A stretch of DNA of 64,000 nt from an uncultured bacterium (GCA_963725235.1 CAVRXN010000002.1:186902-250901), one strand, 5' to 3'. Counted from the stretch's first letter, positions 9,203-34,567 are shown. Program-made: numbers and translations. Notes: generated by a model not told the origin, from the sequence alone.

Positions 9203-10933
9203 ATGAATGATGAACAGCTCCTCGCACAGCTGCAAGCACAAAATTTAGTCGACGCCGCGACGGCGACGCGTCTCAAGCGCGATGCTCTGATCGGTAGTGA
9301 ATCGATCGAGTCGCTGATTTCGCGGCAGCATATGGTTGACGACGTGCAGGTGGCGCAGATAAAGAGCGCGGCGCTGAAAGTGCCGTATAAGAAAGTCGAT
9401 CTAACAACGATCGATGCGAAACTGCTGCAAATGCTTCCCGAGGATACCGCGCGGACCTATGCGGCCATCCCGCTCTCATTCGATAACAACCTGCTCGTTA
9501 TCGGGATGGTCCATCCGGACGATGCAAAAGCGCAGGACGCAGTGAAATTTATCGCGCGGCAAAACCGCTGGAATCTCGGCGTGTATTTGATTTCATACGG
9601 CGACTGGCAGGATGCCCTGAAAAAATATTCGCCGTACCGGAACGAGATTGAAAAGGCGGTCGAATCGCTCAATATTAAAGAAGGCGACAACCAACGAAAG
9701 GTGGTACAGCTCGGCGCAATGGGCGGCGCCGAAGATGCGCCAATCATCCGGATCGTTTCCGACACGTTTCAGGAAGCGGTCGAGAGTAAAGCATCCGACA
9801 TCCATATCGAACCGCAGGAAAAATTCCTGCGCGTTCGTTTGCGTATCGACGGCGACCTTCGCCAAGTTGCATCGCTTCCGCCCGAGCTTGCCCAGCCAGT
9901 CGCGTCGCGCGTCAAAGTTATTTCAAATTTAAAAATCGACGAAACGCGTATCCCGCAAGACGGCCGCTTCCGTGCACGCATCTTTGACCGCGACATCGAC
10001 TTCCGCGTCGCAACATTCCCAACGCCGCTCGGCGAAAAAATCGCGATCCGCGTTCTCGACCCATCAAGCGGCCTGAAGGGATTCGATAATTTGCCATATT
10101 CCGACCATAACCGAAAAACGATAACCGAAGCACTCGACAAGCCGTTCGGCATGGTACTCGTAACGGGTCCAACCGGTTCCGGAAAAACGACGTCGCTCTA
10201 CGCAATTTTGCAAAAATTAAATACCGAAGACGTAAACATCGTTTCACTCGAAGATCCGGTCGAATATTTCGTAAGCGGTATTAACCAGTCGCAGGTCAGG
10301 CCGGAAATCGGCTACGATTTCGCATCCGGCCTCCGACAAATTCTGCGCCAAGACCCCGACGTCATCATGGTCGGCGAAATTCGCGACAGTGAAACTGCCG
10401 GCTTGGCCATTCAGGCAGCGCTGACCGGCCATATCGTTTTGTCGACGTTGCATACGAATAACGCCGCCGGCGTCATCCCGCGCTTGATCGATATGAAAGT
10501 TGAACCGTTCTTGATTCCGGTTTCATTAAATTTGATAGTCGCGCAGCGGTTGATCGGAACGCTTTGCCCCGATTGCAAACAGCCGGAAGAAGCATCCGCG
10601 CTGGTTCAGGAAATTATCGCCCGCGCAATCGACGATTTGCCCGAAGACGCCAAACCGGCGGTAACCGCGAAATATCAAGCGCCCTACAAGATCTACCACG
10701 CGAAAGGATGCAACACCTGCAAAGGCCGCGGCATTCTCGGCCGCAGCCAGATTCAGGAAGTGTTCCGGATGACGCCTGCAATCGAGCGCATCGTCGCCGA
10801 AGGCCCAACAATCGAGAAGCTGACCGCCGAAGCAAAGCGGCAGGGAATGGTCACACTGCGACAGGATGGCGTCGTAAAAGCACTCGACGGCCAGTTCTCA
10901 ATGGAGGATGTGTTGAGGGAGACGGAGGACTAA
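9203..10933 (+). CDS. pilB: Type IV pilus assembly (extension) ATPase PilB / GspE family
   Basis: T2SSE N-terminal domain, Walker A GPTGSGKTT, Asp box, Walker B DPDVIMVGEIRD, His box LTGHIVLSTLHTN, tetracysteine CPDC..C..C. Confidence 0.95.
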   Translation: MNDEQLLAQLQAQNLVDAATATRLKRDALIGSESIESLISRQHMVDDVQVAQIKSAALKVPYKKVDLTTIDAKLLQMLPEDTARTYAAIPLSFDNNLLVIGMVHPDDAKAQDAVKFIARQNRWNLGVYLISYGDWQDALKKYSPYRNEIEKAVESLNIKEGDNQRKVVQLGAMGGAEDAPIIRIVSDTFQEAVESKASDIHIEPQEKFLRVRLRIDGDLRQVASLPPELAQPVASRVKVISNLKIDETRIPQDGRFRARIFDRDIDFRVATFPTPLGEKIAIRVLDPSSGLKGFDNLPYSDHNRKTITEALDKPFGMVLVTGPTGSGKTTSLYAILQKLNTEDVNIVSLEDPVEYFVSGINQSQVRPEIGYDFASGLRQILRQDPDVIMVGEIRDSETAGLAIQAALTGHIVLSTLHTNNAAGVIPRLIDMKVEPFLIPVSLNLIVAQRLIGTLCPDCKQPEEASALVQEIIARAIDDLPEDAKPAVTAKYQAPYKIYHAKGCNTCKGRGILGRSQIQEVFRMTPAIERIVAEGPTIEKLTAEAKRQGMVTLRQDGVVKALDGQFSMEDVLRETED

Positions 10934-10980
10934 GAGACACCCAGACAAGGAGACAAAGATACACGGAGACAGAAGACAAG
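10933..10980 (+). repeat. GAGACA-type dispersed repeat, copy A (purine-rich strand on +)
   Basis: AGAGACACCCAGACAAGGAGACAAAGATACACGGAGACAGAAGACAAG. Shares GAGACAAAGA and ACACGGA with the reverse complement of copy B. It also shares TGTCTTCTGTCTCC and GTCTGGGTGT (as reverse complement) with the copy inside pilD. Confidence 0.7.
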
Positions 10981-10986
10981 CGACTG

Positions 10987-10995
10987 TGCTATAAT
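10987..10995 (+). promoter_or_regulatory. Extended -10 promoter element TGCTATAAT upstream of pilT
   Basis: A perfect TGnTATAAT lies between the two inverted repeat copies, 60 nt upstream of the pilT ATG. Confidence 0.5.
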
Positions 10996-11010
10996 TTTCT
11001 TGTAGATCTC

Positions 11011-11052
11011 CGGTCTCTTCGTATCCGTGTCTTTCTGTCTCTTTGTCTCTCT
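11011..11052 (+). repeat. GAGACA-type dispersed repeat, copy B (inverted relative to copy A)
   Basis: CGGTCTCTTCGTATCCGTGTCTTTCTGTCTCTTTGTCTCTCT. Its reverse complement GAGAGACAAAGAGACAGAAAGACACGGATACGAAGAGACCG aligns with copy A and with the ligA copy. Confidence 0.7.
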
Positions 11053-11055
11053 ACT

Positions 11056-12129
11056 ATGGACGACTTTAAAGCAAAACTTATCGACTTGCTGACGACGACG
11101 GCGAAGCAGAATGCTTCCGATTTGCATTTGGCGGTCGGACGGCGGCCGACGTTGCGTATCGATGGCGTACTCGTGCCGCTCCAGAAAGAGCCAATTACGA
11201 CGCCGGAAGTTGCGGAGGGGATTATCGGCGCGCTGATAACGGATGAGCAAAAGCAGAAATTGATCCGCGACCGGCAGGTGGACTTTGCCTACAGCTTCGA
11301 GGACAAAGCGCGCTTCCGCGTCAACGTATATTACCAGCGCGGCTATCTCGCAGCGGCGCTTCGCTTGGTTCCGAACCGCATCAAGACGATCGAAGAGCTC
11401 AACTTGCCGCCGCTCCTCCACGATCTCGCAAAGCTTTCGCAGGGATTCGTCCTCGTCGTCGGTCCCGCTGGCCACGGTAAGTCCTCGACCCTCGCCGCAA
11501 TTATCGACGAGATCAACCACACGCGCTCCGACCATATTATTACCATCGAAGACCCCGTCGAATATTTATTTACGCAGGACAAGTGCATCGTCTCCCAGCG
11601 CGAAGTCGGCAGTGACGCCGTCGGTTTCCATTCCGCGCTGCGAACGGTTCTCCGCCAAGACCCCGACGTCATCATGATCGGCGAAATGCGCGACGCCGTT
11701 TCGATCGGCACGGCGATGACCGCATCCGAAACCGGCCACTTGGTGTTATCGACGCTCCATACGAACTCCGCCTCGCAAACAATCGACCGCATCATCGACT
11801 CATTCCCAGCCGAACAGCAGGGCCAGGTGACATCCCAGCTCGCGGCGACGCTCGTCGCAATCATTTCCGAACGCTTGATGCCGCGCTTGTCCGGCGGCCG
11901 CATCCCGGCGATGGAAATCATGATCGTGAATCCCGCCATCAGGAACCTTATCCGCGAACGGAAAACATACCAGATCGACCTCGTGATCGAAACCAGTTTG
12001 CAGGAGGGGATGGTGACGCTCAACCGGTCGCTCGTAAACTTGGTGAAGAATAAAGAGATTTCACTCGAGAATGCCGAGCTGTATTCGCTGAATCCGGCGG
12101 AGTTGCGGATTCTTCTCGAAAGAACATAG
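11056..12129 (+). CDS. pilT: Twitching-motility (retraction) ATPase PilT
   Basis: MDDFKAKLIDLL..ASDLHLAVGRRPTLRIDG, Walker A GPAGHGKSST, DPDVIMIGEMRD, TGHLVLSTLHTNSA, AIRNLIRE motif. The 5' extension of ORF 10564 is a spurious overlap with pilB. Confidence 0.95.
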   Translation: MDDFKAKLIDLLTTTAKQNASDLHLAVGRRPTLRIDGVLVPLQKEPITTPEVAEGIIGALITDEQKQKLIRDRQVDFAYSFEDKARFRVNVYYQRGYLAAALRLVPNRIKTIEELNLPPLLHDLAKLSQGFVLVVGPAGHGKSSTLAAIIDEINHTRSDHIITIEDPVEYLFTQDKCIVSQREVGSDAVGFHSALRTVLRQDPDVIMIGEMRDAVSIGTAMTASETGHLVLSTLHTNSASQTIDRIIDSFPAEQQGQVTSQLAATLVAIISERLMPRLSGGRIPAMEIMIVNPAIRNLIRERKTYQIDLVIETSLQEGMVTLNRSLVNLVKNKEISLENAELYSLNPAELRILLERT

Positions 12130-12141
12130 TTTTGTTACGCA

Positions 12142-13360
12142 ATGAAATTCAAATATCAAGCCCGAACTAAACAAGGCGAGATGCAGGTTGGGTTCGTTGA
12201 GGCGGGCAGCCGCGACGGCGCAATCGGCATCCTGACGTCCCACGACCTGTTCGTCTTGAAAGTCGAGTCGTCGGAATCCGTCAGCCCGCTCGATCGCGTA
12301 AACGCTTTTCTCTCGAAGCCGCGCCGGAAAGATATGATCATCTTTTCACGCCAGCTCGCGACGCTACTCGAAGCGCGCTTACCGCTCAATAACGCACTGA
12401 AGATTCTTTCCCAGCAGACCAGAACAAGTCACTGCAAGGCGGCAATCGGGCAGGTGACGGAAGACATCGACGCCGGTTTATCATTTTCGCAGGCGATGGC
12501 GCGCCAGCCGAATATTTTTCCCGACTACTATGTCGAGATGATCCGCGCGGCGGAGGTGACGGGCAATATGAACGAGGTGTCGACCTTCCTCGCCGACTAT
12601 ACCGAGAAGGAAGCGGAGCTTTGCGAGCAAGGCGTCGTCGGCGCATGATCTATCCGGGCATCGTGCTCGCCGTGTTCTTTGTTGTCGCATTCATCTTGCT
12701 GACATTCGTTTATCCGGCGCTCGGCTCCGTCTTCGCCGAGAACGGTGTCACGTTGCCATGGTACACGAAAATACTGCTCGCAACCGGCAATTTCTTGGCG
12801 AAGTGGTGGCCGGTCGTTATCATCGCGATCGCCGCCCTCGGTTTCGTCATCGTCGATTACTTCGGAACTGACGAAGGCAAAGCGCTGCTCGATGACGCGA
12901 AGATAACGCTGCCGATCGTGAAGCAAGTCTACAATCCGGTCATCATGGCGCGCTTCGGTAACTCGGCCGCGCTCCTCGTCCACGGCGGCATCCCGATCGC
13001 GCAGTCGATGGAGATCATCGGCCATATGGTCGACAACGTTTTATATCGCGACGTCATCCACGATATCGCCGAAGACGTCCGGCAGGGCATTTTGCTGTCT
13101 GAAGCATCGCGAAGCATCCGCGTTTCTTCCCGTCGCTCGTCCCGCAGATGGTCGCCGTCGGCGAAACGACCGGCAAGGTAGAAGATATGTTCAACCGCCT
13201 CGCCACTATCTACACCCGCGACGCCGACAAGATAACCAATAACCTCGTCGACCTCATCCAGCCAATCCTCATCATCGGCATGGGTCTTATGGTCGGCCTG
13301 CTGTTCGCTTCGATCCTCATCCCGATCTATAGCTTGACGGCAAATGTCGGGAATGGGTAA
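12142..13360 (+). CDS. pilC: Type IV pilus platform protein PilC (GspF family), split over three frames by two apparent 1-nt indels
   Basis: ORFs 12142..12648, 12621..13181 and 13148..13360 together give a collinear PilC: IFSRQLATLLEARLPLNNAL.., MIYPGIVLAVFFVV.., FPSLVPQMVAVGETTGKVEDMF..IQPILIIGMGLMVG. Frame changes occur at the T-run 12620-12622 and at GAAG 13111-13114. Confidence 0.85.
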
Positions 13361-13476: not shown

Positions 13477-13998
13477 ATGTTAAACGAAATGAAAGATTTC
13501 AACCGAAAGGGTTTTACGCTTATCGAAATCTTGATCGTCGTCGCAATCATCGCAATCTTGGCATCCATCGTTCTCGTCGGTCTCGGGCCCAGCCAACAGG
13601 CAGGCCGCGATGCGCGCCGATTGTCGGATTTGCATGAAATCCAGACCGGTCTCGAATTGTACTACAATGCCTGCGGATATTATCCAGGTACCGACACAAA
13701 AACGCCGTGTACTGGATATAAAAACTCAACAGGATTCGTAGCCCTAAAAGGCATTCTTACCGGATTTGCGAGTTTAGGTATCACCAGCGTTCCTGATGAT
13801 CCGACAGGAGGGAAGCATTATACTTATAGCACTGTTCCAGGTACAGGAACTTCGTATGTGTTGAGTGCTACTTTGGAAAATGCTAATAATACCGTTTTCA
13901 CGAGCTACACTCCTCCAAATAATGCAGCGGCTGCTACTGATGGAGATGGCAAGCAGACCTGTGCTGCGGCTGGTCCTCAGTATTGTATTTCTATCTAG
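13477..13998 (+). CDS. pilA: Major type IV pilin (prepilin with N-terminal cleavage/methylation motif)
   Basis: Leader ..NRKG followed by FTLIEILIVVAIIAILASIVLVGL (G/FTLIE class III signal, Glu5). A strong terminator lies immediately downstream. Confidence 0.85.
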   Translation: MLNEMKDFNRKGFTLIEILIVVAIIAILASIVLVGLGPSQQAGRDARRLSDLHEIQTGLELYYNACGYYPGTDTKTPCTGYKNSTGFVALKGILTGFASLGITSVPDDPTGGKHYTYSTVPGTGTSYVLSATLENANNTVFTSYTPPNNAAAATDGDGKQTCAAAGPQYCISI

Positions 13999-14030
13999 TG
14001 TAGTGTTAGGTTGGTGGAATCGTTTTCCCG

Positions 14031-14056
14031 AAAACCCCGCCTCGTGCGGGGTTTTT
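14031..14056 (+). terminator. Rho-independent terminator after the pilin gene
   Basis: AAAACCCCGC-CTCGT-GCGGGGTTTT: a GC-rich stem followed by a T-run. Confidence 0.7.
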
Positions 14057-14212
14057 GATTGTCGGCGAGCGCGGTGCAGCAAGGGGAGATTTCAGCAACT
14101 CAAAAACCGCCTTTTAGCGGTCTTTGATCGGGGTACTTTTGGCACCCAGCCTCCTCGCCAGATGATTATCATAATACCCCCGTTGTGTCGGGTTCTGCGC
14201 TATAATAAACCC

Positions 14213-15067
14213 ATGCTCTGGTTTCTTCTCTTTGTCTTCGGCGCAGCGATCGGGAGTTTTTTAAACGTCGTCGCGGTTCGGTATGACGGCGAAAAGTTTT
14301 TGTTCTCAACGAAAGCGATCGGCGGCCGCTCGCATTGTCCGCACTGCAAGAAAACCCTCCAGTGGTACGAACTGATCCCACTCGCCAGCTTCGCAATACA
14401 AGGCGGCAAGTGCCGAAACTGCAAAGCGCACATCTCATGGCGCTATCCGATTATGGAACTGCTCTCCGCCGCTATCTTTGTCTTCGTCCCATTCTTTCTG
14501 TCTTCTGTCTCCCTGTCTTCTTTGTCTTTTGTCTCCCTGTCTCTCGTCTGGGTGTTCGCATTCGAGCTCCTCCTCCTGATCGCCTACATCGACCTCTTGC
14601 TAACCATCATCCCGGATGAACTAAACATCGCCCTTGCCGTCGTCGCACTCGTCGAGATCATATTATCAATACACGCGTTCGGCGCCGCCAACCAATCATC
14701 CTTCGGCCCATTCGCAAGCGTCTTCGGCTTACAATCGAATATCTGGATCAACCACATAGTCGCCGCCGTGTTCGGCGTCGCGTTCTTCGGCGCGATCGTC
14801 GGCGCGACGCGTGGACGGGGGATGGGTATGGGCGACGCGAAGCTCGCGTTGCCGCTCGGCCTGCTCTTCGGCTGGCCCGATATCCTGATCATCGCCATGA
14901 TAGCGTTCGTCATCGGCGGCGCGTACGGGCTGATCGCGATAACGGCTGGCAGGAAGACGATGAAAAGCGCTGTGCCATTCGGACCATTCCTCGTCATCGC
15001 CTCGACCATCGCATTCTTCGCCGGCACCGGTTTATTTAACTGGTATTTCCATATGTTAGGATTATAG
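14213..15067 (+). CDS. pilD: Prepilin peptidase / N-methyltransferase PilD (A24 family)
   Basis: MLWFLLFVFGAAIGSFLNVV, zinc cysteines CPHC..C.NC, catalytic Asp motifs IDLLLTIIPDE and GMGMGDAKL. TATAAT at 14201-14206 is 6 nt from the ATG. The longer ORF from 13865 crosses the pilin terminator and is rejected. Confidence 0.9.
   Translation: MLWFLLFVFGAAIGSFLNVVAVRYDGEKFLFSTKAIGGRSHCPHCKKTLQWYELIPLASFAIQGGKCRNCKAHISWRYPIMELLSAAIFVFVPFFLSSVSLSSLSFVSLSLVWVFAFELLLLIAYIDLLLTIIPDELNIALAVVALVEIILSIHAFGAANQSSFGPFASVFGLQSNIWINHIVAAVFGVAFFGAIVGATRGRGMGMGDAKLALPLGLLFGWPDILIIAMIAFVIGGAYGLIAITAGRKTMKSAVPFGPFLVIASTIAFFAGTGLFNWYFHMLGL
14476..14557 (+). repeat. GAGACA-type dispersed repeat, copy C, embedded in frame in pilD
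   Basis: CTTTGTCTTCGTCCCATTCTTTCTGTCTTCTGTCTCCCTGTCTTCTTTGTCTTTTGTCTCCCTGTCTCTCGTCTGGGTGTTC. Contains the exact 14-mer TGTCTTCTGTCTCC and 10-mer GTCTGGGTGT found in the reverse complement of copy A. Translated as FVPFFLSSVSLSSLSFVSLSLVWVF. Confidence 0.7.
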
Positions 15068-15068
15068 T

Positions 15069-15728
15069 ATGTCGTTTCAAATAAATCGGCACTCGCGCGC
15101 CCGCGCCACCCGCGCGCATCGCCGCGCATTCACTCTTATCGAACTCCTGATCGTCGTCGCCATTTCAGCGATTTTTTCGACGCTCGCGATAACGTACTCG
15201 AGCGTCGGCCGCAATGCGACGACGCTGACTGTCGAGGAGGCGAAGATTTCACAATTCATACTACAAGCGAAGCAGCTCTCGCTTTCGACCTATACCGTCG
15301 GCAATGCGACGTCATCTTGCGCGTTCGGCATGACATTCGATTTGGCCGCAACACCGCAAACATATTCGATCTTTTCCTATGATCCAGGAACGCCCAACTG
15401 TCCATCCGACGATACGATTACAAATATTACGACCGATCAAGAAAAAGAATATACGAATGGAACATGGAAAGTGCCGGTTGCGCAGGGCGTTGTCTTGAAG
15501 TCGCAGGATAATAATGATGGCCTCGTGACGATTTTATTCTATCCGCCGGCGCCGGATGTATTTCTCTTGCGCGAAGCGGATATTAGTAATGGGGGTTCGG
15601 GGCCGCAAACATTCGGCAGCGGGCCAAATAATCCGGGAAGCGCGAGCGTCTATCTCGAAACAATTGACGGCAAAAATAGTGCAACATTTTCAGTCGACTC
15701 CGAAGGGCAAATTTCTTTCGCACAATGA
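15069..15728 (+). CDS. Minor pilin / pseudopilin with prepilin-type N-terminal motif
   Basis: ..HRRA-FTLIELLIVVAISAIFSTLAI. Position -1 is Ala rather than the usual Gly. Confidence 0.75.
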   Translation: MSFQINRHSRARATRAHRRAFTLIELLIVVAISAIFSTLAITYSSVGRNATTLTVEEAKISQFILQAKQLSLSTYTVGNATSSCAFGMTFDLAATPQTYSIFSYDPGTPNCPSDDTITNITTDQEKEYTNGTWKVPVAQGVVLKSQDNNDGLVTILFYPPAPDVFLLREADISNGGSGPQTFGSGPNNPGSASVYLETIDGKNSATFSVDSEGQISFAQ

Positions 15729-16312
15729 AACATTTTAGCAAAAAATCTGGCCGCCAATCCGGACAAACGCTCGTCGAGGTCATGGTCGCGCTGTTCGTTC
15801 TGACGACCGGTTTTCTCGGCATCGTAACGCTCCTCTCCCAGTCACTCTATATCAGCAAAAATATCAGCACCGAAACGACGGCAACCTATCTCGCCGCCGA
15901 AGGGATTGAGCTCGCGAAGAATATTATAGACCATGATGTATACCAGCATCTCGATTGCAACGTGCAAGGAACCGGATGGGCGCAGGGATCTCACGATACG
16001 GCGTTCACGGTCGGCCGCAGTTATCAACTCGACTACACGACATGCAACGATCTGGCGGGACGAGCAACGGATTGCGATCCTCAGCTCTACAACAATCAGA
16101 ATCAATTATTACTCGACCCAACGACTGGCCTCTACGGCTATCAAAGCGGCGCCCCGACGCCGTTTACGCGCGAAGTCCGAATATCCTCCGATCTATCAAA
16201 CGAAGAGCTGACCGTCCAATCGATCGTGACCTGGCATGTCGGCCTCGGCACGCAGAGCGTAACGCTCGAAGACGATTTCTATAACTGGCATCCATCAACC
16301 AGCTGCACATAA
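15725..16312 (+). CDS. Minor pilin, PilV-like
   Basis: ..RQSG-QTLVEVMVALFVLTTGFLGIV (Glu5 present). ATGA overlap with the upstream gene. Confidence 0.7.
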   Translation: MKHFSKKSGRQSGQTLVEVMVALFVLTTGFLGIVTLLSQSLYISKNISTETTATYLAAEGIELAKNIIDHDVYQHLDCNVQGTGWAQGSHDTAFTVGRSYQLDYTTCNDLAGRATDCDPQLYNNQNQLLLDPTTGLYGYQSGAPTPFTREVRISSDLSNEELTVQSIVTWHVGLGTQSVTLEDDFYNWHPSTSCT

Positions 16313-16316
16313 CATT

Positions 16317-16940
16317 ATGAAATTAAAAAAAGGATTCACTCTTATAGAATTGTTGGTCGCCATCGCGGTTTTTTCGATCGTCGTCGCGATCGGTGTCGGC
16401 GGCTTCGTACATGCGCTCCGCACCCAGCGCGAAGTTGCGGCGCTTATCGCAACCGAAACAAACGCTTCGACCGCACTCGAGCAGATGGCGCGCGAGATTC
16501 GAACGGGAGAGCTGTTCTGTACCAATGCTGGCAGCGATCCGGGAACGCCAGCGACGCAAAACGCTGCGTGCGCACCGGTGAATGGAATGGGCTGTTCAAT
16601 CAACGGCACCGTCTGGACCTGCAACAGCATCCTCGACTTCTACAACTCCGACGGCAACAACGTCGACTATGAATTGAACAACGGATCGCTCGGCCGAAGC
16701 CAGGACGGCATCGACGGCGACTTCACGCCGTTGACGAGCAACAACGTAAACGTCGTCAGCACGACCTTCATCATTTTCGGCAACACGGAAGGCGATAACT
16801 GGCCGCCGCGGATAACGATCGTGCTCCGCGTCGCACCGAGCTCGACCGACCCGGCGCTCGCAAACGACATCCTCGACTTCCAAACCACCGTCAGCGCCCG
16901 TGAAATCGACTGCACCCAGGGGCCAAGCGTCGAGTGTTGA
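16317..16940 (+). CDS. Minor pilin, PilW-like
   Basis: MKLKKG-FTLIELLVAIAVFSIVVAIGV class III signal. Confidence 0.75.
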   Translation: MKLKKGFTLIELLVAIAVFSIVVAIGVGGFVHALRTQREVAALIATETNASTALEQMAREIRTGELFCTNAGSDPGTPATQNAACAPVNGMGCSINGTVWTCNSILDFYNSDGNNVDYELNNGSLGRSQDGIDGDFTPLTSNNVNVVSTTFIIFGNTEGDNWPPRITIVLRVAPSSTDPALANDILDFQTTVSAREIDCTQGPSVEC

Positions 16941-16965
16941 CAAATTTTCCATAATACGCTATCAT
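16937..16965 (+). promoter_or_regulatory. Canonical sigma70 promoter (TTGACA, 17 nt, TATCAT) for the 17034 gene
   Basis: TTGACA at 16937-16942 and TATCAT at 16960-16965. Followed by a long leader and a strong SD GGGGGAG 3-4 nt before ATG 17034, which is unlike the neighbouring leaderless-style genes. Confidence 0.5.
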
Positions 16966-17033
16966 AAGGGCAGATTCGCACTTATCAGCTTTAGGTCGAA
17001 TTTGGTTCAAAAATTGCATATAAAGGGGGAGCT

Positions 17034-17903
17034 ATGAAACAGCTCTTTTTCGCTACGTTTTTGCTCGCGTTTTCGCACGTGAGTACATTGTTGGGGCAAT
17101 CAGAGCCGTCCATGGCTCGGGATCTTGAGATTTCTAGTCCGAACTTGGGCCTGGTCTATTCGTCTCCTTCGGGGAACTCCTGTATCACCTTGAGGGTCGC
17201 AATCGGAGACGCCAATGGGGTTCCGCTTGAAAAAGAACTCCAAGCGTTTGGCAGTCAGAGTTTCGGCGACGTCTCGTTCTGCCCGGGCGTCACGGTGAAA
17301 TTCTCGGTTGCCGACCTTCCGCCTGGAACATATCAGGTGCACGTCACGGATCCGACGAATGGGGCGATCGACCAGACGCTTAACCTTCCATTGAATGGCG
17401 CTGAAAATCGTCTCACCACCGAAAGCGAAAACTCGCAATCGGCCGCGATTATGGCTAGCCAAGCATTTTCGCCGGGGACGGGTTTTTTTGCATACGTATC
17501 GCCCGATGAGCAGCCGGCTGGCAGCACGGTCATCTATTTGACTGGCAACGGATATCCGTACAATAGGGCACCGAGGTACGTTCTCTCGCAGAAACAAGAC
17601 GATGGCACTTGGGTGACGTGGGAGGCCAGGCCCCAGGTTGGTCAGTACTCGGAGTTCTGCAACGAGGTCGATTACTTTCAGGCAGAATCGGGCGGCACGC
17701 TTGTAGAGAGAGATCTATGGGCGCAAACGCTGACGGTGCCGGTCCCGTATATTCGGGAGGATAGGCCAACGTATGCAACCATCATCGACGATAATCCCGA
17801 TGGTTATCGTGGCCAAAGCGTGACGATCGTTCTGATTTCGCTAGCCTCAATGCGCACCGCTTTCCCGGTATGCCATCCGGGCGGGCAGTTCTCATTCAAC
17901 TAG
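17034..17903 (+). CDS. Secreted protein of unknown function (signal peptide)
   Basis: N-terminal MKQLFFATFLLAFSHVSTLLGQ signal-like sequence. 289 aa, no recognisable domain. Confidence 0.6.
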   Translation: MKQLFFATFLLAFSHVSTLLGQSEPSMARDLEISSPNLGLVYSSPSGNSCITLRVAIGDANGVPLEKELQAFGSQSFGDVSFCPGVTVKFSVADLPPGTYQVHVTDPTNGAIDQTLNLPLNGAENRLTTESENSQSAAIMASQAFSPGTGFFAYVSPDEQPAGSTVIYLTGNGYPYNRAPRYVLSQKQDDGTWVTWEARPQVGQYSEFCNEVDYFQAESGGTLVERDLWAQTLTVPVPYIREDRPTYATIIDDNPDGYRGQSVTIVLISLASMRTAFPVCHPGGQFSFN

Positions 17904-17980
17904 CAACCGTAGCCGGTCCCAGTTCCTTGTAGGGGCTGTCGATATCCACATCGACGGCCCCTTTTATTAACCAATATGTT

Positions 17981-18529
17981 ATGATTATTCTAATGGAAAC
18001 AAGACGTGGTTCAGTCCTGATCATCCTCATTATCGTCGTCGTAATTATTATCGCCCTCGTTGCATGGTGGATTATTTGGCAACAGGGGATGGCCGAACAG
18101 GCCCCAACAACAACGGCGACCACTACGCCTTCGTCAACTATCAATTATTTATCCGACGATCAAACCCCGACCGGCATTCCGTCGGGTCTGCCAATAGATG
18201 CGAGTCCGGAAATTTTGCAAAATTCCCAGAGCAATTATCCGGTGTCCCGGCCGCAGCAAGCACTCTTCGAATATGTGACGGCGAAAACGGTGGAGCAAGC
18301 CTATGCCGACTATATGAATTATCTCCGACAAAATAATTGGATCGTCACTGCGTCGAGCACGGCGAGTGGCGTCGGCAGAATCTCCGCGCAAACGAAGTTC
18401 GTCGCCATGAGCGTGATTATTGGGACGAACACCGTGTTGAACCAGAATACCGTCACGATCGCGACGAACTATTACGCTCCGTCAACGGCACCGTTGAGCG
18501 AGACATCTACGGCGACAGGCAGGCCATAA
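17981..18529 (+). CDS. N-terminally anchored membrane protein of unknown function
   Basis: RRGSVLIILIIVVVIIIALVAWWIIW TM anchor followed by a Thr-rich linker and a ~130-aa domain. Confidence 0.55.
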   Translation: MIILMETRRGSVLIILIIVVVIIIALVAWWIIWQQGMAEQAPTTTATTTPSSTINYLSDDQTPTGIPSGLPIDASPEILQNSQSNYPVSRPQQALFEYVTAKTVEQAYADYMNYLRQNNWIVTASSTASGVGRISAQTKFVAMSVIIGTNTVLNQNTVTIATNYYAPSTAPLSETSTATGRP

Positions 18530-18536
18530 ATATTCA

Positions 18537-18899
18537 ATGAATAGATCATCAAAATTTATTATAATATCCGGGTTAATTTTTTCGGCTTTTATCGTGCTGG
18601 GCGGCTTTCAGCTCCATAGCGCAAAGGCAGTTAATGTGTCTTGTGTCGACGGTGACGTACTTTACTGTGCATCATGTAGGCCGGCCGTTCAAGGTCAATA
18701 TTCTTTTTCGTGCGGTGGACCGTATGATCCAGGAATTCCATTCGAGGATCCTACCACCGGAGGTTGTTATGTCCCGTATTACTGTGCTGATACTTGGGTT
18801 AATGGTGACGCCGTCGCCAGCTGTATTAATTTTGGCCCCGGCAGTGATGTATGCGGGTATTCTGCTGTTGCAGGTTCCTGCCAGGCAGATCTAGGGTAA
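18537..18899 (+). CDS. Small Cys-rich secreted/anchored protein, in frame with the following ORF across one TAA
   Basis: Signal/anchor FIIISGLIFSAFIVLGGF, then 9 Cys in ~90 aa. Stop TAA at 18897-18899 is followed directly by GTG 18900 in the same frame. Confidence 0.55.
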   Translation: MNRSSKFIIISGLIFSAFIVLGGFQLHSAKAVNVSCVDGDVLYCASCRPAVQGQYSFSCGGPYDPGIPFEDPTTGGCYVPYYCADTWVNGDAVASCINFGPGSDVCGYSAVAGSCQADLG

Positions 18900-20522
18900 G
18901 TGGGACCGGAAAATTTGCCGGTAGCATGCTCGAGCCTACAAGCTCCGACTTCGGCAACTCCTCCGGCCCCCCAGCCAACTTCTTCCGGTGTGCCCGACTT
19001 CACCCTTCAGCTTAATCCTACGACGCTTATCCCGGTTACCGCTGGCGATCCGGCGCCGACGTTAACGCTCACATTGACCCCGAACGGTAACTACAGCGGA
19101 GATACGACGCTGACGATAAACGGCATCGGCGGCACGTTATATTATCCGGGCAATGTTCCGGTTAACGGTCCGGTTCTTGTCACGGCAGGCACTGCTCAAA
19201 CATTTAAACTCATCCCTGACGACAATTCCGCAGGTAATTATCCTATCAGCGTAACTGGCGTCAGATTTGACGGCACGGTTCCCCGCAACAGCAATACGGT
19301 AACGTTCGTCGTAAATGCTGCGCCGGTGATCACGGGTGTTACTGTCAACTGCCCGTCGTCAGTGGTCATTAACCAAACCATTCCGTGCAATGCAGTGGTT
19401 AAGGGACACGGCAGTTTCGATTCGACGGTTGCATGGAGCGTTATTAGCCCAATTGGAGGAGGGTGGGGATCTTTCTCGCCGCTGACCACGACGAATGGCG
19501 TTGCAACGAATTATACGGCGCCTGGATCGGTCGGGAATGTGAGGGTGAGGGCGGTGAGTCCAAGCGGAAAATCGGGTACTGAGTGGATCCAGATCGTCGC
19601 CCCATCTCCCTGCACTCCATTGACTTATAGTGCCGCAACTTCCGGTTTCGCAACCTCGACAGCCGGTCCAACAAATCAGAATTCGATAACGCTCGCACCT
19701 ACCGACCAAGTATTCTATACGTACGTCGATTATGGCGAGCAGTATGCGGATTCAATTCAAGCGCCAACTGCTCCAAGCGCGCCGGCATGCACGTTCGATT
19801 CAGCGGATGGCACGAATGGATGGCTTGGCACGGTCGCAATCTTTAAATGCACGACGCCGACCGTCGGCAACTACACCTATAGCACCGGCGTAAACGGCGG
19901 AACGTCGGATAACGATTGTGCAGTTGGCTCGCAGCAGATCGGCGCGGCGAACGGCGTAACGGTATCGAATCCTCTCTCTGGCGGTCCGCCTTCGATATCC
20001 AATCCAAATCCGAATCCGGTTAATCCTGGCGAGGCGACGACGATAACGGCGGCTGGTGGCTGCGGCATCGACACGTGGACTACGAGCGGGAATAATGGCA
20101 CGATCACCGCTCCATCAAATACCGGCACTACATATTCTCCTACAGATTCTCAGCAGGACACTTATACGGTCACCGTTACGGATAGTTGCGGTCAAGCAAG
20201 TACAATGGTGAACGTCTGGAGTCCTATATGTACTCTCGGGGCAAATCCTGAAGTCGTTACCCCACCACAGAGTTCAGATCTTTCGTACACGTGTTTGTAT
20301 GCCGCATTCTGCGAGATAACGGGGAAAGATGTGAACGGGGCGATTGATTACACGAGCAATCAGCTTCCTTCTGCAATGAACGGAGTAGTCACGGTTACAC
20401 CATCGAAGACAACGAATTACACGCTCGTCTGCAACGGCAATGGTTCCGGTCCAGGCAATACTACCCAAAACACCGCCACGGTTAGCGTCTCCGGCTCCAA
20501 CATCCACGAAACGAATCCATGA
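18900..20522 (+). CDS. Large Thr/Gly/Asn-rich surface protein with Ig-like beta-sandwich style repeats (candidate pilus-associated adhesin); no signal peptide of its own
   Basis: 540-aa ORF starting at GTG. Repeated ..TPNGNYSGDTTLT.., ..VTVNCPSSVVINQTIPCNAV.., ..TVSVSG.. segments. Same frame as the upstream Cys-rich ORF. Confidence 0.55.
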   Translation: MGPENLPVACSSLQAPTSATPPAPQPTSSGVPDFTLQLNPTTLIPVTAGDPAPTLTLTLTPNGNYSGDTTLTINGIGGTLYYPGNVPVNGPVLVTAGTAQTFKLIPDDNSAGNYPISVTGVRFDGTVPRNSNTVTFVVNAAPVITGVTVNCPSSVVINQTIPCNAVVKGHGSFDSTVAWSVISPIGGGWGSFSPLTTTNGVATNYTAPGSVGNVRVRAVSPSGKSGTEWIQIVAPSPCTPLTYSAATSGFATSTAGPTNQNSITLAPTDQVFYTYVDYGEQYADSIQAPTAPSAPACTFDSADGTNGWLGTVAIFKCTTPTVGNYTYSTGVNGGTSDNDCAVGSQQIGAANGVTVSNPLSGGPPSISNPNPNPVNPGEATTITAAGGCGIDTWTTSGNNGTITAPSNTGTTYSPTDSQQDTYTVTVTDSCGQASTMVNVWSPICTLGANPEVVTPPQSSDLSYTCLYAAFCEITGKDVNGAIDYTSNQLPSAMNGVVTVTPSKTTNYTLVCNGNGSGPGNTTQNTATVSVSGSNIHETNP

Positions 20523-20974
20523 TGAGGCGTAGCCGTAAGCGCGAGCGCAGCCATAGCCGCGGGCGCGACGGCCAAGCCATGCTCATCGCCATCCTCACGC
20601 TCGGCGGCGCGATTTTAGGCGCAACATCGCTCGCCGGTTTGCTGCTACTGTACCAAATCCGCTCGACAACCGATACCGAGAATTCCGCAAAAGCAATCTT
20701 CGCGGCGGACACCGGCGCAAACTGGGCACTCTATACATACTTCAATTCGCCGCAGCAGGGGACCGGCCCGGGCATCAACAAGAATGGAGCGCTTGATGAC
20801 GACGAGTCCGTTGCGATAACCTGTTATGCTGCGGATGGGGCGACTCTCGCAGCATGTGATGATCAAGATAATAATCCCGCAACGACGTCGTACGCTATTG
20901 CCGAGGGCTTATCCGGCGGCGCACGGCGTGCGTTTTGGCTCGGCTTGGCTACCGCGACCGGAACGGTGCCTTAG
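20519..20974 (+). CDS. PilX-N-like pilus assembly protein
   Basis: Basic N-terminus, then GQAMLIAILTLGGAILGATSLAGLLLLY, resembling the PilX N-terminal hydrophobic segment. ATGATG overlap with the upstream gene. Confidence 0.5.
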   Translation: MMRRSRKRERSHSRGRDGQAMLIAILTLGGAILGATSLAGLLLLYQIRSTTDTENSAKAIFAADTGANWALYTYFNSPQQGTGPGINKNGALDDDESVAITCYAADGATLAACDDQDNNPATTSYAIAEGLSGGARRAFWLGLATATGTVP

Positions 20975-21031
20975 GTGTGCGACATCCGCGTGCCGCTCCA
21001 AAAAGGCCGCAGGCGGGTATAATAGAAAGGT

Positions 21032-23128
21032 ATGACGAAGGCCGCCGCCCGCGAGCGCATTGAACAGTTGAAAAAACTGATTGCCAAATACCGCTCCTCG
21101 CGGCTGACTTTTAATAAAGAATTAATTTCACCCGAAGCCGAGGATGCGCTCAAAAAAGAATTGTTCGATCTCGAAACGCAATTTCCGGATTTGGTAACTG
21201 CGGATTCGCCGACCCAGCGGATCGGCGGGGCGCCATTAAAAGAATTTAAAAAAGTTCACCACACCGAGCGGATGACGTCGTTTAACGATGCGTTCAGCGA
21301 GGATGATATGCGCGCGTGGTTCAAGCGGTTGGAGGATTATTTAGGCAGAGAGCGCAGGAGAGAAAGAGAGCAGAGAGTGGAATTTTACTGCGAGCTAAAA
21401 ATCGATGGTCTCGCGATCGAGCTCGAATATGAGAACGGTGTTTTCGTTCGCGGGTCGACGCGCGGGGATGGGATGGTCGGCGAAGATGTTACCCAGAATC
21501 TGAAAACCATCGAAGCGATTCCGCTGCAGATTTCGGGCGACGGTTTGCCGCGCGGGATCAAGATGCCGCAGCGTTTGATCGTCCGCGGCGAAGTTTTTTT
21601 AACCAAGCGCGAGTTTGCGCGCATCAACCGCGAGCTCGCCGCGCGCGATGCGAAGACCTACGCGAATCCACGCAACGTCGCCGCCGGCTCAATTCGCCAG
21701 CTCGATCCGCGCATCACGGCCTCGCGCCGTCTCGATTCGTTCCAGTATGACATCGTGACCGACCTCGGCCAGAAGACACACGAAGAGGAACACGAACTCC
21801 TCGCCGCGATGGGTTTTCGGACGAATCCGAACAATCGGTTAGTTCACTCACTCGAGGAAGTTTTTAAGTTTCGCGACTATTGGGGTGAACACGAACGGCG
21901 CGAGAAAATCGACTACGAATATGACGGCATCGTCGTTATTGTTAATGATAATTTAATTTTCGAGCGCGGCGGCATTATCGGCAAAGCGCCGCGCGCCGCG
22001 ATGGCGTACAAATTTTCACCGCGCGAGGCGACGACGATTGTCGAAGACATCAAAGTCCAGGTCGGCCGAACCGGCGCGCTGACGCCGGTTGCCGTCATGC
22101 GGCCCGTTAATGTCGGCGGCGTAACGATAACGCATGCGTCGCTGCATAACGCCGACGAGATTGAACGACTCGGCCTGAAGATTGGCGATACGGTCATTGT
22201 TCAGCGTGCAGGCGATGTCATTCCGCAGATTACTCGCGTGTTGCCGGAGCTGCGGACGGGTCGCGAACGGGCGTTTAAGATGCCGACGCGTTGTCCGGTC
22301 GATGGATCGCCGGTTGTTCGCGACGCCGACGGCGCAATCTCGCGCTGCTCGTCACGCCAGTGTGCCGCCCAACATCGTGAACAGCTCTCTCATTTCGTCT
22401 CGCGCGCCGCGTTTAACATCGAGGGCCTCGGCCCAAAAATCATCGACAAGTTCCTCGACGAAGGATTGATCGCCGATGCCGCAGATTTTTTCTCGCTGCG
22501 CGCCGGCGACATCGCCGCACTCGAGCGATTCGGCGAGAAGTCGGCGGAGAATATTGTTAGCGAAGTTGCTGCGAAACGGCGCGTGACGCTGCCGCGGTTT
22601 TTGTATGCGCTTGGGATTTTGCACGTCGGTGAGGAAACGGCGGTGGCGTTGGCGAGAAATACTGACTTTGGACAAAGGGACAAAGAAACAGGGAAACACG
22701 GAAATATACACATTAAGGATATATTAAAAATGTTTCGCGAACTCTCACTCGACGACTTGCAAAAAATCCCCGACATTGGCCCGAAAGTTGCGCAGAGTAT
22801 TTATGATTGGTTTCATGAGTCACGCAACGCGAAGTTGCTCGAGCGGCTCGAGAAGGCGGGAGTCGAAGTAGAAATCCCGGCCGGAGTTACCGCGCGAGGA
22901 AAGCTCGCCGGACAATCGTTCGTTATCACCGGCAGCTTGGAGTCCATGAGTCGCGAGGAGGCGAAGGAAAAAATTCGCGAGCAAGGCGGTGATGCATCCG
23001 AATCCGTATCGGGCAAAACCAGCTATCTCGTCGCCGGCAGCGAGCCCGGATCGAAGTTCGAGAAGGCGAAGAAGCTTGGCGTGAAGGTGATTGGGGAGAA
23101 GGAATTTCTAAAATTGATTGGACAATAA
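21032..23128 (+). CDS. ligA: NAD-dependent DNA ligase LigA
   Basis: Adenylation motif CELKIDGLA, OB fold, Zn-finger CPVDGSPV..C..C, HhH motifs, C-terminal BRCT (GQSFVITGSLESMSREEAKEKIREQGG). Confidence 0.95.
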   Translation: MTKAAARERIEQLKKLIAKYRSSRLTFNKELISPEAEDALKKELFDLETQFPDLVTADSPTQRIGGAPLKEFKKVHHTERMTSFNDAFSEDDMRAWFKRLEDYLGRERRREREQRVEFYCELKIDGLAIELEYENGVFVRGSTRGDGMVGEDVTQNLKTIEAIPLQISGDGLPRGIKMPQRLIVRGEVFLTKREFARINRELAARDAKTYANPRNVAAGSIRQLDPRITASRRLDSFQYDIVTDLGQKTHEEEHELLAAMGFRTNPNNRLVHSLEEVFKFRDYWGEHERREKIDYEYDGIVVIVNDNLIFERGGIIGKAPRAAMAYKFSPREATTIVEDIKVQVGRTGALTPVAVMRPVNVGGVTITHASLHNADEIERLGLKIGDTVIVQRAGDVIPQITRVLPELRTGRERAFKMPTRCPVDGSPVVRDADGAISRCSSRQCAAQHREQLSHFVSRAAFNIEGLGPKIIDKFLDEGLIADAADFFSLRAGDIAALERFGEKSAENIVSEVAAKRRVTLPRFLYALGILHVGEETAVALARNTDFGQRDKETGKHGNIHIKDILKMFRELSLDDLQKIPDIGPKVAQSIYDWFHESRNAKLLERLEKAGVEVEIPAGVTARGKLAGQSFVITGSLESMSREEAKEKIREQGGDASESVSGKTSYLVAGSEPGSKFEKAKKLGVKVIGEKEFLKLIGQ
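22671..22709 (+). repeat. GAGACA-type dispersed repeat, copy D, in frame inside ligA
   Basis: GACAAAGGGACAAAGAAACAGGGAAACACGGAAATATAC aligns with the reverse complement of copy B (GACAAAGAGACAGAAAGACACGGATAC). Encodes part of DFGQRDKETGKHGNIHIK. Confidence 0.6.
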
Positions 23129-23220: not shown

Positions 23221-23898
23221 ATGCCGATCTATAAAACCGTAAATCAGGATTTCTTCAAAACGTGGTCGAGCGATATGGCGTATGTACTCGGGTTTTTTGC
23301 TGCGGATAGGAATATGAGTAAAAACAAAAGAGGCGGATGCTATATTGATTTTGGCATAACAGACCTCGAGTTGCTCGAAGATATCAGGAAAGCATTCGGT
23401 TCTAATAATAAAATTTCAGCACGCGATAGGGGAGCAATTTGGAAAATACTCTATCGCTTGCAGATTGGTAGTAAAAATATGTATAACGATCTTATCGCGC
23501 TTGGTTTTACGCCTCGCAAAAGCTTAACTATCAAGTTCCCATCCATTCCAAAAAAGTATCTTGCAGATTTTGTGCGAGGGTATTTCGATGGAGACGGCTG
23601 TGTGCATTTTGGAAAATATTGGAGGAAAGATCGTCAAGAGTGGAAATTACAGTTGAGCGTTCATTTTATATCAGGCAACAGAGATTTTCTAGAAAAGCTA
23701 TGGAAGGGGTTAAGACCGCTTGTAGCGGGTGGGCATATTTCGAGCAAAAAAGGCGGATATGAGCTTGTATTTGGCCAGCACGATAGTGTTGCATTATTCC
23801 ATTTTATGTATGATAATAGTTCAGAATTGTTCTTGAAGCGCAAATATGAAAAATTTCTATTTGCATTTAAGGAACTAGGAGTTGCGGTCGTGGTGTAG
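23221..23898 (+). CDS. Free-standing LAGLIDADG homing endonuclease (two-motif, single-chain type)
   Basis: Two LAGLIDADG-like motifs: YVLGFFAADRN and FVRGYFDGDGCV. The 3' end overlaps the first 15 nt of tRNA-Asp. The surrounding region is AT-rich. Confidence 0.8.
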   Translation: MPIYKTVNQDFFKTWSSDMAYVLGFFAADRNMSKNKRGGCYIDFGITDLELLEDIRKAFGSNNKISARDRGAIWKILYRLQIGSKNMYNDLIALGFTPRKSLTIKFPSIPKKYLADFVRGYFDGDGCVHFGKYWRKDRQEWKLQLSVHFISGNRDFLEKLWKGLRPLVAGGHISSKKGGYELVFGQHDSVALFHFMYDNSSELFLKRKYEKFLFAFKELGVAVVV

Positions 23899-23958
23899 CC
23901 TGGTTAACATGTCTCCCTGTCACGGAGAAGATCGCCGGTTCAAATCCGGTCGGCCGCG
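23884..23958 (+). tRNA. tRNA-Asp (anticodon GTC)
   Basis: Acceptor GCGGTCG/CGGCCGC (one G-U pair), anticodon stem TCTCC/GGAGA with loop CTGTCAC, T arm GCCGG-TTCAAAT-CCGGT, discriminator G. 75 nt, no CCA. Confidence 0.9.
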
Positions 23959-33346: not shown

Positions 33347-33563
33347 TGAGAAATGTATGTGGCGTTTCAGGCCATATTCACTATTGTTATGTTATAATTA
33401 GGATGATATCAATGGGCAAGTTTTCATTATTATCTCGTCTTGGATGCGCCTCGGTTGCGCTCGTAGCAATGCTCATGTTTTTGGCTCTTTCTCCGAATGC
33501 GCATGCGGCGATTTCTTTTGTGAGTGCAACTAGCACACCCGTAACAGATGGCACTCTCATAAG

Positions 33564-34567
33564 CTGTGAATTACGAAATTCCCTTTTTCATATGAATACG
33601 GAGAACGCAAAGGAACCGCAGTGGTCTGCGGATTTCAAGTTTTTTGAACAGGACCCATCAAACACACAAAAGAAAGTTACTTGCTGAGCACAAAGGAACA
33701 GACAGCGTTCGCGTAGTTCGCGAGGTAGCCGTCAACGGAACGCGGCAGCGACGTCACGAGGCCGTAGAACAGTTTCATGGAGCGGAAGTCGAATTCGATC
33801 TGGAACCTCGACCGGTAGAGCTTCAACTGCCAGGGCAGGGCGAGCTTCTTCATGCTCCTGAGCGGGCGGATCATGACCCACCGCTTGCCATCGATGTTCA
33901 TATCCTTCTCCAGTTGCTTCGAGACATAGCCCGCATCGGCAACGATGACACCGTTAATATCTTTGTTCACGGAACGGAAAAGGTCGCGGTCATTCTTCGT
34001 CGCATCCGAGAACCGGATGCCGAGGATGTTTCCGTCCGCATCCCGCGTCATCGTCATTTTGAGCCCGTAATACCAGCCTTTCGAGCTCCTGCCGAGGGAT
34101 GCGAACGCTTTCATCACCCGGTGGGAATCGGCATTCTTCTTGAGGCAGACCGGAAGGTCGGTCGCATCCGTGTACTTCACGAGATGCCCATGGGCCTTTC
34201 CCCATTGCATGATGATCGCGAGGATCTTCATCGCGAAAACGCCGGCACGGTTCATGGCAACGACAAGCGTCTTGTATGAGCAGGCGAGCCCATCCTTGAA
34301 ATCCTCGTATACGGACTTCTTCGTAGCCCGTGTGCTCGCATGCTGGTAGAGGGCTAATGCCACCGCATCCAGATTTTCAATTTTCAGAGGTCGACCTTGG
34401 GGATTCTTTTTGTGTGTCAGATTGAGCTTGAATGATGTTACAATATCAGTGATCCTGTTCTTGAGATTTCTCAAGATGGGTGAATTCATTTTGTCGTGAG
34501 AGGCGCCTTCGGGCGCCTTTTGCATTATGCCGTATTCATATGAAAAAGGGAATTTCGTAATTCACAG
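33564..34567 (-). mobile_element. IS982-family insertion sequence, 1004 bp, with perfect 38-bp terminal inverted repeats and an 8-bp target-site duplication
   Basis: IR CTGTGAATTACGAAATTCCCTTTTTCATATGAATACGG at 33564-33601, with its exact reverse complement at 34530-34567. Direct repeat CTCATAAG at 33556-33563 and 34568-34575. Confidence 0.9.
33677..34525 (-). CDS. IS982-family DDE transposase
   Basis: DDE triad contexts YTDATDLPVC, VIVADAGYVS, RSRFQIEFDFRSMK. 282 aa, filling the IS. Confidence 0.8.
   Translation of the reverse strand: MQKAPEGASHDKMNSPILRNLKNRITDIVTSFKLNLTHKKNPQGRPLKIENLDAVALALYQHASTRATKKSVYEDFKDGLACSYKTLVVAMNRAGVFAMKILAIIMQWGKAHGHLVKYTDATDLPVCLKKNADSHRVMKAFASLGRSSKGWYYGLKMTMTRDADGNILGIRFSDATKNDRDLFRSVNKDINGVIVADAGYVSKQLEKDMNIDGKRWVMIRPLRSMKKLALPWQLKLYRSRFQIEFDFRSMKLFYGLVTSLPRSVDGYLANYANAVCSFVLSK

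Follow-up and report, generated by a model that had tools for sequence, protein, structure and literature searches.

The 64-kb stretch of DNA analysed here (GCA_963725235.1, CAVRXN010000002.1:186902-250901, called the window below) holds a type IV pilus cluster, and the prepilin peptidase gene of this cluster, pilD, carries an in-frame, pyrimidine-rich repeat tract (copy D) of the same origin as a purine-rich repeat arm (copy A, or arm A) in the spacer between pilB and pilT. Alignments show that the likeness of the two goes beyond composition or encoded peptide, that the pilD tract and the intergenic arms are both derived and specific to this lineage, and that the tract has replaced resident sequence between two membrane helices of the enzyme. 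Copy D looks like a tolerated, local and lineage-specific copying scar, not a proven mobile element; the manner of copying, the direction of the transfer and the neutrality of the result are what we infer from these comparisons. The elements needed first are the following (nt, nucleotides; aa, amino acids).

14213-15067, plus strand: pilD, prepilin peptidase, 284 aa plus stop, intact, with its ATG at 14213.
14476-14557, plus strand: copy D, the in-frame pyrimidine-rich repeat tract, pilD codons 89-115, peptide FVFVPFFLSSVSLSSLSFVSLSLVWVF.
14499-14522 and 14523-14546, plus strand: two tandem 24-nt units, 19/24 identical and coding for 8 aa each.
14492-14559, plus strand: longest adenine-free run of the window, 68 nt against about 34 expected.
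10934-10981, plus strand: copy A, purine-rich arm of three 16-nt units in tandem, each with a GAGAC start.
11004-11052, plus strand: copy B, pyrimidine-rich arm in the pilT leader, ending 3 nt 5' of the pilT ATG (11056).

Regarding the matches between the two loci, the 14-mer TGTCTTCTGTCTCC has exactly two sites in the window, 14499-14512 on the plus strand and 10965-10978 on the minus strand, and a copy with one mismatch follows 24 nt further on in pilD, at 14523; the 10-mer GTCTGGGTGT likewise occurs exactly twice, at 14546-14555 (plus) and 10937-10946 (minus), with 0.01 occurrences expected. The best match to copy D is the reverse complement of arm A, with which it forms a gapped alignment of 47 columns and a score of 50, and the inverted pair 10933-10978/14499-14544 is the second-longest inverted repeat of the window. 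The copy B pattern, TCTTCGT...TTTCTGTCT, is also present and collinear in the pilD tract, with a spacer of 7 nt versus 9 nt in copy B. The basic unit of the repeat is a TGTCT core plus 2-4 bases, and TGTCT/AGACA cores are clustered at just two places in the window, namely the pilD tract and the pilB-pilT spacer. When read directly, each 24-nt unit of pilD contains three TGTCT cores with spacings of 7, 8 and 9 nt, and the two units encode LSSVSLSS and then LSFVSLSL; Tandem Repeats Finder gives periods of 7-8 nt for this tract. Copy D is the sole 40-mer of the window with at least 85% pyrimidine, and the lack of adenine from 14492 to 14559 makes a stop codon impossible in all forward frames. A preliminary description, drawn from the DNA alone, had grouped the pilD segment with the intergenic copies A and B on the strength of the 14-mer, the 10-mer and the copy B pattern; this grouping holds, as do the proposed translation of codons 89-115 and the intact reading frame with both Asp motifs.

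As for the derived state of the tract, the source is a candidate-phyla-radiation bacterium, judging from the named homologues of its PilD: of 5314 homologues, the best named ones belong to Candidatus Paceibacterota, and the nearest two, P0002 and P0003, share 79% and 77% amino acid identity with it and lie on contigs (L001 and L003) fully syntenic with the window. The flanks of the tract in the pilD DNA are about 85-90% identical to L001 and L003, whereas 14476-14557 is essentially unalignable; the tract, which is in frame, is lineage-specific. L001 and L003 agree with each other across this position, and their stretch is 30 nt (10 aa) longer; therefore the tract is a replacement and not an insertion, in line with the earlier suggestion that a loop or membrane segment had been exchanged rather than added. 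Finally, TGTCT clusters occur in none of the relatives examined (L001, L003, L071 and L073), and the orthologues without the intergenic copies are also without the peptide.

PilD has both domains of a type IV prepilin peptidase (MEROPS A24), PF06750 (A24_N_bact) at residues 8-92 (E = 2e-28) and PF01478 (Peptidase_A24) at residues 117-240 (E = 1e-9), each above its gathering score, and the tract sits between them. In an alignment of 36 sequences, D127, D208 (within GMGD), C42, C45, C67 and C70 are invariant; following established knowledge of the family, we take the two aspartates to be catalytic and the four cysteines to form its motif. Since the invariant residues are all present, the enzyme is plausibly functional, as far as its alignment can tell, and the segment encoded by the tract ends 12 residues before the first catalytic Asp. 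The AlphaFold2 model, built with 36 homologues, has a mean predicted local distance difference test score (pLDDT) of 83.8 and a predicted template modelling score of 0.84; it contains a helix at 77-97, a turn, SVSLS, at 98-102 and a second helix at 103-130, with pLDDT values of 89-96 for the 10-residue blocks covering 81-120. In this model, the tract encodes the end of transmembrane helix 2 (TM2), then a turn of five residues and the beginning of TM3. Among 113 homologues, the distance from the near-invariant Pro93 to the invariant Trp113 varies from 3 to 40 aa (median 20) and the residues in between are not conserved, which is consistent with a site where the family tolerates almost any sequence. 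In the window, this stretch has 19 aa, about the family median, with no Gly and no Pro; its Ser+Leu fraction is 0.68, against at most 0.50 in the loops of all other homologues where these exceed 3 aa, and no similar loop was found among 119 homologues.

The common origin of the pilD tract and arm A is supported by several controls. With Smith-Waterman alignment, the tract scores 46 against the spacer; among 3174 windows from the rest of the 64 kb, the highest score is 31. When the peptide was kept fixed and codons were drawn from local usage, 0/3000 versions reached 46 (mean 22.6), and the similarity noted in the preliminary description therefore exceeds that of its codon-resampled versions; codon-order shuffles reached 46 in 3/3000 cases, and no dinucleotide shuffle of the tract, out of 3000, reached the score of 50 against arm A. 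One caveat comes from the permutation of synonymous codons within the tract, which reaches the observed score in 243/3000 trials (8%) because the codon set itself is already skewed. Indeed, TCT accounts for 6/8 of the Ser codons in the tract versus 10.4% in the 37 open reading frames (ORFs) of the window, where it is the rarest Ser codon (p ~3e-5). Taken with the outcome of the controls, this skew indicates that the nucleotide repeat dictates the peptide and not the reverse.

These controls also bear on a reading in which the same simple unit slipped independently at each locus, starting from native GTCTC seeds, and in which the resemblance is a convergence of low-complexity DNA; we regard it as unlikely, if still worth weighing. 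CGTCTC is native to both loci (...GAGACG... in pilB, ...GGCGTCTCTGC... in pilD), a tandem periodicity of 8, 16 and 24 nt is found at every copy, including a perfect GGACAAAG x2 in the ligA copy described below, the bias correction of nhmmer strips most of the signal, and the 8% success of synonymous permutation points the same way. Yet composition-matched dinucleotide shuffles never attain the D-A score, and the two loci share a collinear order of units, TGTCTTC, TGTCTCCS, TGT(A/CT)TCTT and then the GGG-containing 10-mer, which deviates from the simple unit; moreover, the relatives have the same seeds and no expansion. Similarly, intragenic tandem repeats resemble copy D in being periodic (8 nt, 24 nt), in frame and within a hypervariable linker, but slippage alone leaves unexplained why a second locus, on the opposite strand, matches collinearly.

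The intergenic arms help to trace where the repeat came from, together with three further features of the spacer.

10919-10933, plus strand: native 3' end of pilB including the stop codon, GAGACGGAGGACTAA, the likely seed unit u0.
10982-11003, plus strand: ancestral pilT promoter core in the hairpin loop, TGcTATAAT, with the -10 box at 10990-10995.
10916-11052, plus strand: imperfect 137-nt hairpin from RNA fold prediction, the pilB end plus A pairing with B.

The pilB-pilT spacer measures 122 nt in the window versus 45 nt in L001, 21 nt in L003 and 22 nt in L071. Arm A is absent from 4/4 relatives with a pilB-pilT spacer, and copy B from the relatives examined. The GAGACNGAGGAG ending of pilB is conserved in L001, L003 and L071; the units of arm A directly continue this native terminus, u0 matches unit u3 of the arm at 11/15 positions, and Tandem Repeats Finder reports periods of 8, 16 and 24 nt. 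Furthermore, unit 3 plus the promoter of the window aligns with the ancestral pilB end plus the promoter of L003; this alignment suggests a tandem duplication of the pilB end as the origin of arm A. The promoter core TGcTATAATTTTC is retained in the window, and its TATAATTTTC is common to L003; what the window has gained is a purine-rich block on the 5' side and a pyrimidine-rich block on the 3' side. Since the loop of the hairpin is the ancestral promoter, A and B are two separate additions that flank it. Copy B scores 38 against the reverse complement of A and 37 against D, values reached by 6/3000 and 26/3000 shuffles, respectively. The hairpin has a predicted energy of -54 kcal/mol (z = -3.3), and 0/200 shuffles fold as well.

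In the relatives, a TGnTAnAAT box lies 7-9 nt 5' of the pilT ATG (L003 2935-2958, L071 ~2015-2039, L073 ~2067-2091), and its position suggests a leaderless pilT mRNA; in L073 three extra genes part pilB from pilT, and the box is kept. The pilD gene of the window has a matching layout at 14196-14215, with TATAAT at 14201-14206 and the ATG at 14213. As for the pilT promoter of the window, a promoter scan found GAGACA, an 18-nt spacer and TATAAT, with 10/12 matches and a TG extension; the predicted -35-like GAGACA, 18 nt 5' of the extended -10 box, is provided by a repeat unit. The repeat arms would have turned a leaderless-type pilT promoter into one placed within a 137-nt hairpin, and pilT now has a CU-rich leader of ~60 nt without a Shine-Dalgarno sequence; the pilT transcription start is predicted near 11002.

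A further patch related to the repeat is found in ligA.

22660-22712, plus strand: probable fourth copy, purine strand, in frame in ligA, peptide GQRDKETGKHGNIH.

The coding strand of this patch reads GGACAAAGGGACAAAGAAACAGGGAAACACGGAAATATACAC. Its Smith-Waterman scores against A, B and D are 29-34, reached by 1-3/3000 dinucleotide shuffles, and it is the top background match to the spacer outside pilD. It stands in for a variable linker, where the LigA of L003 has an unrelated GC-rich patch of almost equal length, and the net change is +3 nt; on these alignments, it is a probable fourth copy of the repeat. Elsewhere in ligA, 21342-21383 holds the one 40-mer window whose purine content reaches 85%, and it encodes ERRREREQR versus N-LHEKNGAG in L003; this makes two low-complexity replacements in the gene, the second with no obvious tie to the TGTCT family.

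The four copies all lie within 12 kb of the window, and an nhmmer profile built on them detects no further copy in the 64 kb. The 18-nt core TGTCTTCTGTCTCCNTGT gave 66 single matches, from unrelated phyla, in a genome collection without the source genome, where a rough estimate predicts ~70 by chance, and a metagenome scan with the 26-base A/D core returned one unrelated, eukaryote-like, low-complexity contig. The notion of a dispersed family, present in the preliminary description, is therefore to be narrowed, for the 64 kb covered, to these four neighbouring copies, with no sign of the repeat in the public genome and metagenome scans. Some candidates were considered and rejected. The weak match at 23893-23922 belongs to a tRNA according to Rfam (23884-23958; anticodon GTC by eye, probably tRNA-Asp). 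Its anticodon arm has the 12-mer TGTCTCCCTGTC in common with each of the 24-nt units of pilD, a coincidence judged due to chance with ~0.5 expected. Also discarded was the match TCTTTGTCTTCG, shared by TM1 and the 5' end of the tract, as the TM1 copy is ancestral, being identical in L001, and the match follows from common Phe-Val-Phe codons (~10% chance). The 9-mers found at 58632 and 62897 stand alone, and other lineage-specific inserts, namely the pilin-pilD spacer, the N-terminal extension of a pseudopilin and the pilT-pilC spacer, match nothing in the window and are not local copies.

Local copying between repeats, by gene conversion or template switch, combined with slippage and tolerated at an unconstrained site, is the explanation to which we give somewhat better than an even chance. 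A simple repeat would have arisen beside pilT, its TGTCT/AGACA core recurring every 7-9 nt: most likely, tandem 16-nt duplications of the native pilB 3' end yielded arm A, and an inverted duplicate across the promoter yielded arm B. An A-like sequence would then have been copied in inverted orientation into pilD, 3.5 kb downstream, either through ectopic gene conversion or when replication or repair switched template, primed by microhomology, so that ~112 nt coding for the TM2-TM3 loop were overwritten by ~82 nt; a 24-nt (8-codon) tandem duplication would have followed in place, and the linker in ligA was probably overwritten by a like event. The gene would have survived because the adenine-free tract has no stop codons, the change in length is a multiple of three, the Ser/Leu/Val/Phe peptide can extend two membrane helices, and the family is tolerant at this site; the peptide would then be a by-product of the DNA repeat, with no selected function.

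The 3' boundary of the tract is informative in this respect, because it reads TCTGG-GTGT-TCGC: GTGT is arm A sequence (TCTGGGTGTCTC), TCGC is the sequence of the relatives (TCTGGATCATCGCC), and arm A and the relatives both have TCTGG, a microhomology that takes in the invariant Trp codon. Read from the alignment, this mosaic junction bears the signature of recombination or of a template switch at microhomology. The direction from A to D is favoured because arm A has a local origin in the pilB terminus; as for timing, the pairwise scores (D-A 50, D-B 37, A-B 38) are highest for D and A, so the exchange between these two looks the most recent. Comparable processes are templated mutation, as in quasipalindrome correction and microhomology-mediated replication restart, and ectopic gene conversion. 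Copy D shares with template switching a clustered replacement that is the reverse complement of nearby DNA, the TCTGG microhomology and a clean donor-to-recipient switch; it differs in the 3.5 kb that part donor and recipient, beyond typical quasipalindrome events, and in the additional 24-nt duplication, as judged from the alignment.

Several points weigh against the copying scar as reconstructed above. Its direction is not fixed, because the 10-mer covers the codon of the invariant Trp113 and could have moved from pilD to arm A. The nearest relative is only 79% identical in PilD and there is no intermediate genome, hence the order of events is a reconstruction. Some portions of the tract are closer to B or to other units than to A, and a mosaic tract of this kind fits repeated slippage as well as it fits a single copying event; in addition, an inverted template switch over 3.5 kb is long for a classical quasipalindrome event. 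Leave-one-out nhmmer searches with bias correction give poor E-values (8.2 for D, 0.33 for ligA, 0.036 for B and 0.017 for A), a weakness that stems from the bias correction. Finally, the neutrality of the tract is assumed.

A mobile mini-element that spreads through the genome, similar to the Rickettsia palindromic elements (RPEs) or to MITEs (miniature transposable elements with inverted repeats), with A+B as its full palindromic copy and the pilD and ligA copies as partial or decayed ones, is quite unlikely. RPEs are palindromes of ~100-150 bp that insert whole, add tens of residues and have tens of copies per genome. In the window, four related copies fall within 12 kb, two of them in frame at variable sites of conserved genes; the repeat is stop-free in both orientations, A and B make a 137-nt hairpin, and the genome hosts an active-looking insertion sequence. 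In-frame insertions of this type are documented elsewhere, as short repeats found between genes and inside conserved housekeeping genes (PMC10969869), and the cases described there share with copy D a tolerant site in the protein, the lack of stop codons and an intact host ORF (PMC10969869). Indeed, copy D is in frame, stop-free and at a structurally tolerant site. Unlike RPEs, the genic copies are single arms of 50-80 nt that replace host sequence (-30 nt in pilD, +3 nt in ligA) and can even shorten it. Copy D, with at least 85% pyrimidine and its 68-nt adenine-free run, cannot pair with itself and so is not palindromic; at 10 aa less than the stretch of L001 and L003, its tract adds no residues. 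Neither terminal inverted repeats nor target-site duplications flank D or the ligA copy, and MITEs were rejected on this ground; the likeness to Rickettsia palindromic elements put forward in the preliminary description cannot stand as a mechanism for the same reasons. Besides, the hairpin loop is the ancestral promoter and A and B were therefore not brought by one insertion, the tandem duplication of the pilB terminus accounts for arm A, and nothing in the four known copies points to mobility, with no more copies in the 64 kb and matches of the core in databases only at the level expected by chance.

A related idea, to which we also attach a low probability, is that this is a lineage in which a stop-codon-free mini-repeat spreads by templated patch repair and not by transposition, overwriting unconstrained loops of the conserved proteins PilD and LigA and remodelling promoters. 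If so, it would be a replacement-type counterpart of RPEs and a route, not described before, by which loops turn over in reduced genomes.

Other known systems were compared with the repeat. The palindromes of the repetitive extragenic palindromic sequences and bacterial interspersed mosaic elements (REP/BIME), of the enterobacterial repetitive intergenic consensus (ERIC) and of the Correia type share with the pilB-pilT spacer a long, imperfect and stable hairpin between co-oriented operon genes; the window differs in having one such palindrome in 64 kb and no high-copy family, with arms made of tandem 8/16-nt units from the end of the upstream gene and a loop that is the resident promoter. In the pilE/pilS antigenic variation of Neisseria, non-coding DNA is copied non-reciprocally into a type IV pilus gene; such copying within one locus is a common trait, but here the recipient is a peptidase and not a pilin, there is one low-complexity donor in place of a cassette library, and there is no evidence of ongoing switching. 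A diversity-generating retroelement was rejected, because the differences between A and D are not adenine-specific, include CCC/GGG swaps and indels, and concern inverted copies. A DNA uptake sequence was discarded as well, TGTCT and AGACA not being over-represented (27 and 35 occurrences in 64 kb).

The arms could also be functional cis-elements, either as an array of sites for a pil-specific regulator that binds DNA or RNA, or by long-range RNA pairing of A with B, which would occlude the pilT start, or with the pilD tract, so that expression would be coupled along the operon; this is very unlikely. In its favour, the arms flank the pilT promoter, the repeat unit supplies the -35-like GAGACA, the hairpin ends 3 nt 5' of the pilT ATG, the predicted A:D duplex (-70.3 kcal/mol) is more stable than A:B (-51.6), and every copy except that in ligA is within one pilus gene cluster. 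Nevertheless, neither the arms nor the tract is conserved in any relative, the 8-nt spacing is unfit for helical phasing, and the ligA copy is outside the operon; local A:B pairing would kinetically beat an interaction across 3.5 kb, and the stronger A:D complementarity is what recent copying predicts.

Highly improbable is a reading in which the peptide is what matters and the DNA match is incidental, the tract having come from selection for a short TM2-TM3 hairpin rich in Ser and Leu or from recombination with a divergent allele of pilD: AlphaFold2 predicts a confident helix-turn-helix packing and the family has a hotspot of variation at this loop, yet the anomaly is in the codon choice, normal codons for this peptide never yield a match to the spacer, and a similar loop is absent from all 119 homologues. 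That the tract is an artefact of assembly or chimerism is barely credible, despite a homopolymer indel versus a Logan contig at 57185 and three indels in pilC: the frame and the invariant residues are intact, and the separately assembled Logan contig from run ERR11523662, which is 100% identical over 13591-16468 (2878 nt including the tract), argues against it.

In case the local copying scar is the right explanation, the pilD tract would be a clean natural case of a non-coding repeat copied into the turn between membrane helices with the gene left alive, and it would show the extent to which prepilin peptidases allow their TM2-TM3 connection to be rewritten. It would also hint that local templated repair, beside point mutation and transposition, drives the turnover of loops in the small genomes of the candidate phyla radiation, and the change at the pilT promoter may alter the expression of the pilus motor. 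On present evidence, the tract is a single-lineage curiosity with no demonstrated function, akin to in-frame repeats and templated loop replacement and a variant of these.

As for the gene setting, the pilus cluster of the window is composed as follows.

9203-10933: pilB.
11056-12129: pilT.
12142-13360: pilC.
13477-13998: pilin.
3' of pilD: three pseudopilins.

The pilC gene (12142-13360) is broken into three ORFs (12142-12648, 12621-13181 and 13148-13360), which keep 85-91% amino acid identity; compared with L001, it has two 1-nt insertions near 12620-12645 and one 1-nt deletion near 13106. This is either a very recent pseudogene or the result of assembly indels; in the former case, selection on the whole pilus cluster, including pilD, would be relaxed. 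With three indels in the pilC of the assembly, it is uncertain that the peptidase is essential for the pilus, as the preliminary description had it.

Position 57185 is a T6 versus T5 homopolymer and the sole mismatch to an independent Logan contig (L074) over 3.5 kb; it alters the called length of a minus-strand MgtC-like ORF and may be an assembly indel. The only insertion sequence of the window, at 33556-34575, is compact, has 46-nt terminal inverted repeats that are 96% complementary, and encodes on the minus strand a 282-aa DDE transposase (Pfam DDE_Tnp_1_3); a link with the repeat was rejected, since its terminal repeats are unrelated to it. Between the last pseudopilin gene and ligA there are ~4 kb (16950-21015), where L003 has 96 nt; the ORFs 17034-17903 and 18900-20522 in this region have no Pfam match. 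Finally, the pilin-pilD spacer (14060-14200) is ~130 nt longer than in L001, with the extra DNA being without a match elsewhere in the window, and the terminator hairpin at 14028-14060 is retained, with 94% identity to L001.

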